From positions 25,270 through 89,269 of the forward strand of contig CALABJ010000017.1 of assembly GCA_937885645.1 (NCBI GenBank): a stretch of 64,000 nt of DNA. Direction: 5' to 3'. A model generated the notes under the pieces. The model had not been told where the DNA came from, did no database searches, and worked only from the letters and a program-made list of their open reading frames with translations. Below, in pieces: positions 42,008-42,173 of this stretch. Position 1 is the stretch's first letter; each line of letters begins with the position of its first letter. Source of the DNA: an uncultured Clostridia bacterium (GTDB taxonomy: Bacteria > Bacillota > Clostridia > Christensenellales > CAG-917). A program made the position numbers and the translations under genes.

Positions 42008-42173
42008 AACACCGGGTTTATGCTCGGTGTTTTTTTGTTGTGGGACTTTGTGCTTTCAGCACCACGCTACGCGTGTGAACCCATACTGTATGGCTGGCGC
42101 TCGTTCCTTTGTGCAAGCACAACCTCTCACTATTACGCTCACTCCGTTCTCTACAAGTCCCTTCATCTGCTCT
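42008..42173 (+). repeat. tRNA-Leu-linked copy of the same element family (terminator hairpin, structured ~110 nt, degenerate tRNA-Leu 3' end copy)
   Basis: CACCG-N10-CGGTG plus T7, then shared blocks CTTTGTGCT, GAACCC and GGCTG(A/G)CGCTCG. It ends in CAAGTCCCTTCAtCTGCt (42155..42172), which matches the tRNA-Leu T-loop-to-acceptor at 16 of 18 positions. Confidence 0.75.

Follow-up and report, generated by a model that had tools for sequence, protein, structure and literature searches.

Tandem structured repeats behind tRNA-Lys(CTT) and tRNA-Leu genes of gut Clostridia, with an architecture like that of Escherichia coli RtT repeats

The stretch analysed here, referred to as the window, is a 64,000-nt segment (64 kb; positions 25,270 to 89,269) of contig CALABJ010000017.1 from an uncultured Clostridia bacterium (assembly GCA_937885645.1). 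It contains a divergent block of tRNA genes, with tRNA-Gly(GCC) and tRNA-Lys(CTT) forming an operon on the minus strand and tRNA-Leu(TAG) on the plus strand (Table 1). Modules of 150–170 nt without genes inside, here called units, begin at the first base past the CCA of tRNA-Lys and of tRNA-Leu. Two tandem 151-nt units, 96% identical to each other, follow tRNA-Lys, and a single unit follows tRNA-Leu, which is the source of the T-arm and 3′-end copies within that unit. On one side of the units stands the tRNA terminator, and on the other the following gene or its promoter. A preliminary description made from the letters alone had proposed that the Leu segment and the Lys units form one family with a functional fold at the level of RNA or single-stranded DNA. 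The analysis reported here, in which other sequences are denoted by L numbers, gives good support to a new family of structured repeats of the tRNA-linked kind known as RtT in Escherichia coli (Rfam RF00391), showing microCIME-like DNA behaviour.

All unit types (A, A′, B and C) consist of an intrinsic terminator, a reverse-complement (RC) copy of the T arm of the cognate tRNA, a structured interior and the tRNA 3′ end repeated in direct orientation (T loop to CCA), and each unit stands directly 3′ of the tRNA CCA or of the CCA of the preceding unit. In type A, read in the tRNA sense, the terminator is followed by the RC of tRNA positions 57–69, a 28-nt insertion holding hairpins h1 and h2 at the position of the T loop, and the RC of 47–56. 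After a turn of 2–4 nt, the second half comprises a sense copy of 47–52, which forms hairpin h3 with the RC of 47–56, then a 12-nt motif, hairpin h4, a CTATT block and a sense copy of 54–76, the interior being made up of h3, the motif GGCTGRCGCTCG, h4 and the CTATT block. In the predicted fold, the single strand is closed by a helix, P0, between the antisense T-arm segment and the tRNA-derived 3′ end, which leaves a single-stranded …ACCA tail.

In the Leu unit, the terminator is bidirectional in form owing to an upstream A-tract. The 5′ strand of P0, GTTGTGGGACTT, is an RC copy of tRNA-Leu 57–69 (T loop, 3′ half of the T stem and start of the acceptor) with one substitution and one deletion, and it pairs with 42155–42161, the fold having been computed for L036. 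The segment TGAACCCATAC is an 11-nt exact RC match to tRNA-Leu that was reached in 1 of 300 shuffles and that also appears as inverted repeat I8 with the tRNA, and the 3′ arm of h3 is a sense copy of T-arm positions 48–52. In the tRNA-end copy, T54 is kept, A replaces T55 and the CCA has decayed to TCT; the homologue in strain L081 reads CAAGTCCCTTCAACTGCACC.

Table 1. Features of the divergent tRNA block and its units in the window (RC, reverse complement; CM, covariance model)
Feature	Position	Strand	Evidence
tRNA-Gly(GCC)	41723..41797	-	ARAGORN
tRNA-Lys(CTT), encoded CCA, last gene of the Gly-Lys operon	41631..41706	-	ARAGORN; Rfam tRNA 67.3 bits
tRNA-Leu(TAG), encoded CCA	41924..42006	+	ARAGORN; Rfam tRNA 53.9 bits
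Leu unit	42007..42173	+	
Leu unit: intrinsic terminator, CACCG-N10-CGGTG + T7	42007..42036	+	terminator scan, sequence
Leu unit: P0 closing helix, 5′ strand GTTGTGGGACTT	42037..42048	+	exact RC match GGGACTT
Leu unit: h1 GTGCT-ttc-AGCAC	42050..42062	+	covariation (helix 1); independently RNAalifold
Leu unit: h2 CACGC-tac-GCGTG	42063..42075	+	covariation 4/5 pairs (helix 2); RNAalifold
Leu unit: TGAACCCATAC, RC of tRNA-Leu 47–57, running into h3 CCATA-ctg-TATGG	42076..42093	+	RC match, helix 3
Leu unit: conserved motif GGCTGGCGCTCG	42092..42103	+	three window copies vs 0.16 expected; near-invariant columns
Leu unit: h4 TTGTGC-aa-GCACAA	42109..42122	+	covariation 5/6 pairs (helix 4)
Leu unit: CTATT block, common to Leu and Lys units	42130..42134	+	invariant columns, alignment A3
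Leu unit: direct copy of tRNA-Leu 3′ end TACAAGTCCCTTCATCTGC, T loop to end of acceptor stem	42152..42170	+	direct repeat D4, 94%
Lys unit 1	41481..41630	-	tandem repeat D1; CM match 135.9 bits
Lys unit 1: terminator	41603..41630	-	
Lys unit 1: P0 5′ strand CTCAGG	41592..41597	-	
Lys unit 1: h1	41575..41586	-	
Lys unit 1: h2	41562..41574	-	
Lys unit 1: RC T-arm segment CGAACCCGG	41553..41561	-	
Lys unit 1: h3	41545..41556	-	
Lys unit 1: motif	41535..41546	-	
Lys unit 1: h4	41517..41528	-	
Lys unit 1: tRNA-Lys 3′ copy, plus ACCA	41484..41500	-	
Lys unit 2	41330..41480	-	CM match 129.2 bits
Lys unit 2: terminator	41452..41479	-	
Lys unit 2: h1	41424..41435	-	
Lys unit 2: h2	41411..41423	-	
Lys unit 2: h3	41394..41405	-	
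Lys unit 2: motif	41384..41395	-	
Lys unit 2: h4	41366..41377	-	
Lys unit 2: tRNA-Lys 3′ copy, without CCA	41333..41349	-	

That the Leu segment belongs to the same family as the Lys units was borne out by an alignment in which the two are homologous along their full length, interior included, with a common order of 5′ edge, h1, h2, GAACCC with h3, motif, h4, CTATT and tRNA-end copy. The motif GGCTG(A/G)CGCTCG has exactly three copies in the 64 kb, all inside units, and it is near-invariant across Lys-type, Leu-type and A′ units, with a single substitution in each of 3 of the 18 aligned units. A covariance model (R1) was built from 18 distinct units, which come from about seven related species-level lineages (85–100% protein identity) and many strains; it recovers only family units and gives exactly three matches in the window, at 116–136 bits. 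The sequence features listed in the preliminary description are all present, i.e., the terminator of the Leu unit with its T7 tract, the tRNA-derived end CAAGTCCCTTCATCTGC at 42154–42170 (16/17 against the tRNA-Leu 3′ segment, or 16/18 with the next base), the shared blocks CTTTGTGCT, GCAC, GAACCC and the motif, the hairpins TATGC-ttc-GCATA and CCGG-tttc-CCGG of the Lys units against CACGC-tac-GCGTG and CCATA-ctg-TATGG of the Leu unit, and the complementary ends, CTCAGG with CCTGAG in Lys unit 1 and GGGACTT with AAGTCCC in the Leu unit. Three of its coordinates were off by one and are corrected here to 42063–42075 for h2 of the Leu unit, 42042–42048 for GGGACTT and 42155–42161 for AAGTCCC. The similarity is not confined to these blocks, as it extends to h4 and CTATT, and chance is excluded as its source by the motif count, the covariation test described below and the matches to the RC of the cognate tRNA (at most 4 of 300 shuffles).

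Orthologous loci were gathered through the neighbouring RlmI-like methyltransferase gene. A pattern scan of genome contigs returned 37 stretches, two of which were counted as true, each match lying directly behind a tRNA: L007, the orthologous locus in another species, and L036, a contig of a digester metagenome-assembled genome. L015 and L033, the two low-GC matches, were rejected, as both lie within coding sequence with no tRNA beside the match, and the remaining 33 were set aside solely because no tRNA adjoins the match and the genomes are GC-rich. A scan of metagenomes with the same kind of pattern gave 39 stretches and L058, identical with L036, as the sole true match; patterns of exact blocks of this kind would miss diverged members, e.g., L090 and L107. 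An Rfam search of window positions 40800–42600 and of L080 at E ≤ 10 returned chance matches only, and thus no known RNA family for the units. Two simpler descriptions were also rejected. The type B interior is not an inverted tRNA-Leu pseudogene, since no tRNA match was found on either strand, and the unit is not, as a family feature, one long palindrome centred on h3, the match of the left arm to the RC of the right arm being found only in the Leu unit of the window (3 of 500 shuffles) and absent in seven other units.

Over the 20 base pairs of the four hairpins in the 18 distinct units, 97.9% of the cells are paired, compared with 83.1% in column shuffles and 22–50% in controls with slid partners. 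Both sides have changed in 14 of the 20 pairs, and the observed values were reached in none of 500 shuffles; many of the counted covariation cells reflect the single split between Lys and Leu units, with several independent events still left within each class. RNAalifold, unaided, recovered h1, h2, h4 and a short closing helix. The variants include GTGC/GCAC, ATGC/GCAT and GCGC/GCGC for h1, TATGC/GCATA, CACGC/GCGTG and CGCAC/GTGCG for h2, and TGAAC/GTTCA, TTGAA/TTCAA, TGTGC/GCACA, TATGC/GCATA and CGAGC/GCTCG for h4. In L107, h1 (GTGGAC/GTCCAC) and h2 (GCAAC/GTTGC) have wholly different sequences at the same positions. The compensatory change at fixed positions that was first noticed between one Lys and one Leu unit thus extends to 18 distinct units and to this divergent variant. 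The hairpin loops are 2–4 nt long and freely variable, and folds closed by P0 gave, with DNA energy parameters, z = −4.8 for type B and z = −3.3 for type A. Mismatch events on the tRNA-sense strand comprise 4 G·T and 5 A·C, i.e., no strand bias, and an assignment of the active strand by wobble pairs was dropped, these counts being uninformative.

In the RNAalifold prediction, the motif, at its sites in the Leu unit and both Lys units, can also fold by itself into a short alternative hairpin, GGC-UGRC-GC(U)C. This hairpin overlaps and excludes h3, shows covariation of the two outer pairs when Lys units are compared with Leu units, and resembles h1 of the Lys units (GCTGGCGCAC vs. GCTGGCGCTC). 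On these predicted folds, a structural switch between h3 and the motif hairpin is possible.

The conservation of the units was compared with that of 4-fold sites in the adjacent methyltransferase gene. Between other species and the window, unit interiors are 68–87% identical, whereas the 4-fold sites are 41–49% identical; within the species (L080 vs. the window), the values are 97% and 87%, respectively. The interiors are therefore far better conserved than these sites, and the units are not inert debris, in agreement with the earlier view of the element as constrained. By this measure, the units are evidently held under purifying selection for the hairpins and the 12-nt motif.

Every unit type contains an exact RC match of 9–14 nt to the T arm of its own tRNA and to none of the other tRNAs. 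These segments are, in type A Leu units, TGAACCCATAC (47–57) and a second block (57–69) that ranges from GGGACTT up to the 12-nt TTGAAGGGACTT of L036; in type A Lys units, CGAACCCGG(G); in type B Leu units, AAGGGACTTGAAC; and in type C Lys units, GATTCGAACCCGGG. The segments that pair with the tRNA-derived end are accordingly copies of the cognate tRNA, as had been proposed. The unit ends themselves, from the T loop to the CCA, read CGAATCCCTGAGGACGCACCA in Lys units and CAAGTCCCTTCAACTGCACCA in the Leu units of L080 and L081.

The preliminary description went further and held that hairpins, ends and closing helix all track the identity of the adjacent tRNA, which is correct only in part. P0 and h3 follow tRNA identity because they are built of T-arm sequence, but h1, h2 and h4 vary by lineage rather than by tRNA. 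In L108, the Lys-type hairpin TATGC/GCATA stands in the Leu unit, which is therefore a Lys/Leu chimera; Lys-linked and Leu-linked modules evidently exchange sequence. The end is not always matched to the adjacent tRNA, since the unit behind tRNA-Gly(TCC) in L036 is of Leu type and has an end of Leu type. Likewise, the closing helix is kept at 7–13 bp in Leu-type A units and in type B, but it is weak in Lys units, with 4–6 bp and often a mismatch (CCCAGG vs. CCTGAG, one mismatch, in most of them), and a change in the tRNA fragment of L007 is uncompensated.

The number of units differs between loci. Lys arrays contain one to three full units, often followed by a truncated last unit, and Leu arrays contain one or two, the 21-nt tRNA-end copies marking the unit boundaries in these expanding and contracting arrays. 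Two further interiors have the same architecture and a different sequence, namely the Leu-linked type B (L080, L111 and L036) and the Lys-linked type C (L107). Of three sequences from one species, L080 has type B, whereas L081 and the window lack it precisely, and mixed arrays occur in both orders, tRNA-B-A and tRNA-A-B. A one-base deletion (T60) is found in the tRNA fragment of both L107 units and of the L007 unit and not in the tRNA itself; its sharing by the adjacent L107 units and L007 indicates that arrays also grow by duplication of whole units. Some arrays (L109, L107 and L111) close with an undamaged tRNA fragment, beyond which stands another terminator that appears to be native, and others are truncated at differing points (in h1, in h3, after the motif or after the terminator). 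Distal units carry more uncompensated mismatches, e.g., Lys unit 3 of L080. In three lineages, the Lys array stops right after the motif GGCTGRCGCTCGG, with unrelated sequence beyond (L081 5264–5372, L007 4410–4507 and L109 6445–6540), which suggests that breaks recur at the motif or that the unit has an internal natural boundary there.

The surroundings of the arrays vary as well. The whole tRNA block (Leu, and Gly-Lys, with their arrays; window 41330–42173 vs. L080 5170–6430) is found either way round with respect to the methyltransferase and GFO/IDH/MocA genes that flank it, a comparison that also takes in L107, L108 and L109. Its orientation differs even between strains with an identical methyltransferase protein (the window and L081 vs. 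L080). The arrays are inverted intact, which places the inversion breakpoints at the outer array ends. The slot between the methyltransferase gene and the Lys array is strain-variable: in the window it holds an open reading frame (ORF) of 151 amino acids (40717–41172, minus strand), in sister species an ORF of 116 amino acids (L093 5202–5552, minus strand), a NUDIX gene or an acetyltransferase gene, and in L081 it is empty; no Pfam match was found for the 151- and 116-amino-acid products. In L036 (440–1700), the type B unit is cut short by a gene for an AraC-like protein of 291 amino acids, which, together with its leader (…GGGCGGCTGAACTATTTGGGCAAATAAAGTCGAG…), was found in at least ten different genomic contexts of gut metagenomes (L118–L137). 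This gene has the look of a small mobile cassette, bordered by repeat elements of its own and unrelated to the units. Spurious ORFs of 85–150 amino acids are called over the arrays (L080 5134–5559, L111 6171–6548, and window 41278–41665 and 42018–42326, both on the minus strand), and several metagenome contigs (L083, L086, L088, L094 and L095) end inside unit arrays. The repeats thus break assemblies at tRNA loci and contaminate protein sets.

Genes for mobility were sought around the units. About 60 ORFs of the window were scanned and are either housekeeping or without a Pfam match (the dcw cluster, clpXP, tig, obg, topA, dprA, hisS, glyA and sporulation genes), and no integrase, transposase, relaxase or reverse transcriptase was found among them, two small ORFs (24936–25322 and 32978–33700) lying outside the scan. 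The suggestion that a tyrosine or Y1 recombinase is associated with the elements thus found no support among these ORFs. No integrase, transposase or relaxase was found among the genes called beside the orthologous loci either, and pattern scans and BLAST searches with all unit types found no similarity in phage, plasmid and viral collections. No promoter-like site inside the units passed the scan on either strand.

By analogy with RtT, the reading preferred here, tentatively and somewhat short of probable, is that the units act as RNA. Read-through of the tRNA terminator would give a tRNA-sense transcript, the presumed active form, in which the antisense T-arm segment and the tRNA-derived end close a multi-hairpin RNA domain. 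The closing helix with its NCCA tail might mimic an acceptor end and lead to cutting and trimming by the tRNA 3′-end machinery, as with rtT RNA, and the outcome would be a stable RNA of unit length, released by each downstream terminator. Arrays would expand and contract by recombination between the 21-nt tRNA-end copies, and the modules may first have arisen, and may still spread, when tRNA-Lys(CTT) and tRNA-Leu genes recombine at their T loop, whether site-specifically or illegitimately.

However, several observations weigh against an RNA role. A strong intrinsic terminator (12 pairs, T7) precedes every module, so only read-through transcripts could hold the module, and no promoter-like site was found inside the units on either strand. 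The mismatch events (4 vs. 5) show no excess of G·U over A·C, which would be expected of a selected RNA, and loops so short and variable suit hairpins of DNA no less than of RNA. In Lys units, the closing helix has just 4–6 bp, with uncompensated changes. The occurrence of four unrelated interiors on one architecture points to a common formation mechanism rather than to one RNA function, and no sequence or covariance-model similarity to RtT was found in either direction.

The chief rival explanation, possible though doubtful, is that the units are miniature gene-less integrative elements that integrate at the T loop of tRNA-Lys(CTT) or tRNA-Leu, perhaps as folded single-stranded DNA. The unit would be of attP size, would supply the tRNA gene with a new 3′ end and terminator while pushing the old end to a distal position, and would rely on a tyrosine recombinase supplied in trans by an integrative and conjugative element (ICE) or integrative and mobilizable element (IME) elsewhere. 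The folded antisense and sense T-arm pieces would rebuild the attB duplex of tRNA 47–69, and the insertions that bear hairpins would mark the crossover in the T loop, much as in the attC sites of integrons or attP(+) of CTX phage. This explanation is in keeping with units that are 151–190 bp long, gene-less, tandem and flanked by direct tRNA 3′-end repeats. The 3′ ends of tRNALys and tRNALeu genes are the commonest targets of IME tyrosine integrases in streptococci, where microCIMEs, i.e., gene-less, att-flanked, decayed ICE/IME remnants of 130–220 bp, are known (PMC7563491). It also accounts better than the RtT-like model for the four interior types on one architecture, the precise presence or absence of type B within one species, the retargeting of one interior family to two tRNAs with all tRNA-derived segments swapped, and the choice of tRNA-Lys(CTT) and tRNA-Leu. 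The A/B arrays in both orders, the Leu-type unit behind tRNA-Gly in L036, the arrays of L109, L107 and L111 that end in a complete tRNA fragment before an apparently native terminator, a fold that rebuilds both halves of the T-arm duplex, the lack of wobble strand bias, the very short loops, and the conservation of structure without sequence are likewise in its favour.

However, neither the ~60 scanned window ORFs nor the genes called beside the orthologous loci include an integrase, transposase or relaxase, there is no sign of excision, and the units show no similarity to phage, plasmid or viral contigs. The family was found at just one chromosomal locus plus L036, and the T60 deletion in both L107 units and L007 indicates growth by unit duplication rather than by repeated integration. 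A double-stranded circle of 150 bp would be a poor recombination substrate, and we know of no tRNA-targeting single-strand integration system. In addition, microCIMEs are defined as decayed remnants, whereas the units are constrained. It is unlikely that the units represent the smallest site-specific mobile DNA, in which a folded strand of ~150 nt would replicate the attB T-arm duplex and be integrated into tRNA-Lys or tRNA-Leu by a recombinase supplied in trans. If this were true, the target could be reprogrammed by swapping four short tRNA-derived segments, and the enterobacterial RtT repeats would be the same phenomenon.

The units might instead be inert scars of old integration, excision or illegitimate duplication, alike only through concerted evolution by unequal crossing-over and gene conversion. 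The variable copy number, the arrays truncated at differing points, the greater number of uncompensated mismatches in distal units (Lys unit 3 of L080) and the presence or absence of whole types between strains fit such an origin. However, the interiors are 68–87% identical across species where neutral sites are 41–49% identical, 97.9% of the hairpin cells are paired with 14 pairs doubly changed, and the 12-nt motif is near-invariant across Lys-type, Leu-type and A′ units. Concerted evolution within a genome cannot keep orthologous units alike across species, which makes inert scars quite improbable.

Finally, it is very improbable that the units serve as cis-antisense or insulator elements, in which the RC T-arm segments of read-through RNA would pair with the upstream T arm (~23 nt in two blocks) and either mark read-through precursors for decay or reinforce termination to shield neighbours from tRNA promoters, because, although every unit type has antisense blocks to tRNA 47–57 and 57–69 just past its terminator and the units, with terminators bidirectional in form, always lie between the tRNA terminator and the next gene or promoter, such a role leaves the tRNA 3′-end copy, the tandem repetition and the conserved hairpins and motif unexplained, closer pairing partners exist inside the unit (the 3′ arm of h3 and the unit's own 3′ end), and the closing-helix strand block has decayed in Lys units.

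The locus shows RtT architecture with unrelated sequence in gut Clostridia. It offers tractable features, namely several unit types, one interior on two tRNAs, polymorphism of copy number and of presence or absence between strains, strong covariation and clear purifying selection. Taken together, they suggest a general and recurrent process centred on the tRNA T loop, and the segments that set tRNA specificity can be named as the two antisense T-arm blocks, the sense T-stem copy and the 3′-end copy. If the active form is RNA, the units would constitute a new structured RNA class tied to tRNA 3′-end maturation; if it is DNA, they would connect repeats of the RtT type both with microCIMEs and with recombination sites that act as a folded single strand.

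Several known systems resemble the units in part. Like microCIMEs, the units are gene-less, short and bounded by direct tRNA-end repeats, here of 17–21 nt, and they have tRNA-Lys(CTT) and tRNA-Leu as targets. However, microCIMEs sit in accretion with ICEs and IMEs, whereas no ICE, IME or integrase was found near the units among the scanned ORFs and orthologous loci; microCIMEs are the most decayed of elements, whereas the units are under purifying selection with conserved hairpins; and antisense T-arm copies, which the units have, are not described for microCIMEs. Integron attC sites and CTX-phage attP(+) are alike in conserving structure and not sequence, and in presenting, from a folded single strand, a duplex copy of the partner site, which in the units would be the copy of tRNA 47–69. 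They differ in their target, which for the units is the tRNA T loop; neither a GTTRRRY nor a dif-like core was found in the units, nor a link to a recombinase of the IntI or Xer type, and no integron integrase among the scanned window ORFs. PATE and REP elements, whose subterminal hairpins are used by a Y1 HUH transposase (TnpA or RAYT), insert beside a short target and without long duplications, whereas the units have 17–21-nt tRNA-derived repeats and occur only behind tRNAs. A covariance-model scan of the 64 kb found no copy of a unit away from tRNAs, and no Y1 transposase of the IS200/IS605 type that serves PATE and REP was found among the scanned window ORFs. The small RNA 3′ETS-leuZ of E. 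coli is derived from a tRNA-operon trailer and acts as a base-pairing sponge; it shares with the units the position in non-coding sequence of such a trailer, but it is single-copy, lies before the terminator and has no tRNA-derived repeats.

The tyrT/RtT repeats of E. coli stand behind tRNA genes and finish with a repeat of the tRNA 3′ end. They have been known for decades, although to our knowledge no explanation has been given of how they arose or what they do. In E. coli, RtT has been annotated as a small RNA produced by processing, and it is among the differentially expressed RNAs in Klebsiella RNA-seq. In both families, the repeats lie in tandem directly 3′ of the tRNA gene (tyrV in MG1655 is followed by three 178-bp units) and each ends in a tRNA 3′-end copy, which in E. 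coli is tRNA-Tyr 58–76, AATCCTTCCCCCACCACCA. An internal RtT segment, GGGGAAGGAT, is the RC of the 3′ half of the T stem and the acceptor and pairs with the unit end to form the closing helix of the Rfam consensus, leaving a …CCACCA tail; among the Clostridia units, a comparable closing helix is predicted for Leu-type A and type B units, and in Lys units it is weak. In RtT, the 5′ half of the T arm, AAGGTTCGA, precedes 75 nt inserted at the T loop, the site of the insertion in the units as well, and both families have a multi-hairpin interior with covariation.

However, the two families resemble each other neither in sequence nor when the covariance model of one is run against the other. The RtT model gave no match at E ≤ 10 in window 40800–42600 or L080, the E. 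coli control scoring 134–138 bits, and model R1 gave no match in the E. coli RtT locus L117. The E. coli units (L117 1111–1598) do carry the 11-mer CGAGCG(C/T)CAGC, the exact RC of the Clostridial motif including its purine/pyrimidine variant; homology on this ground was rejected and the stretch treated as chance, since it is not conserved in the Rfam consensus, its orientation is opposite and the models do not cross-match. The hosts differ, i.e., Enterobacteria vs. Clostridia, and RtT lacks a strong intrinsic terminator at the unit start, whereas every Clostridia unit has one. Unlike in RtT, the antisense copy of the units spans both halves of the T arm, split by two hairpins, one interior family serves two tRNAs, and several unrelated interior types are mixed in arrays. 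The known systems that come closest to the units are the RtT repeats of E. coli and very small integrative elements that have decayed.

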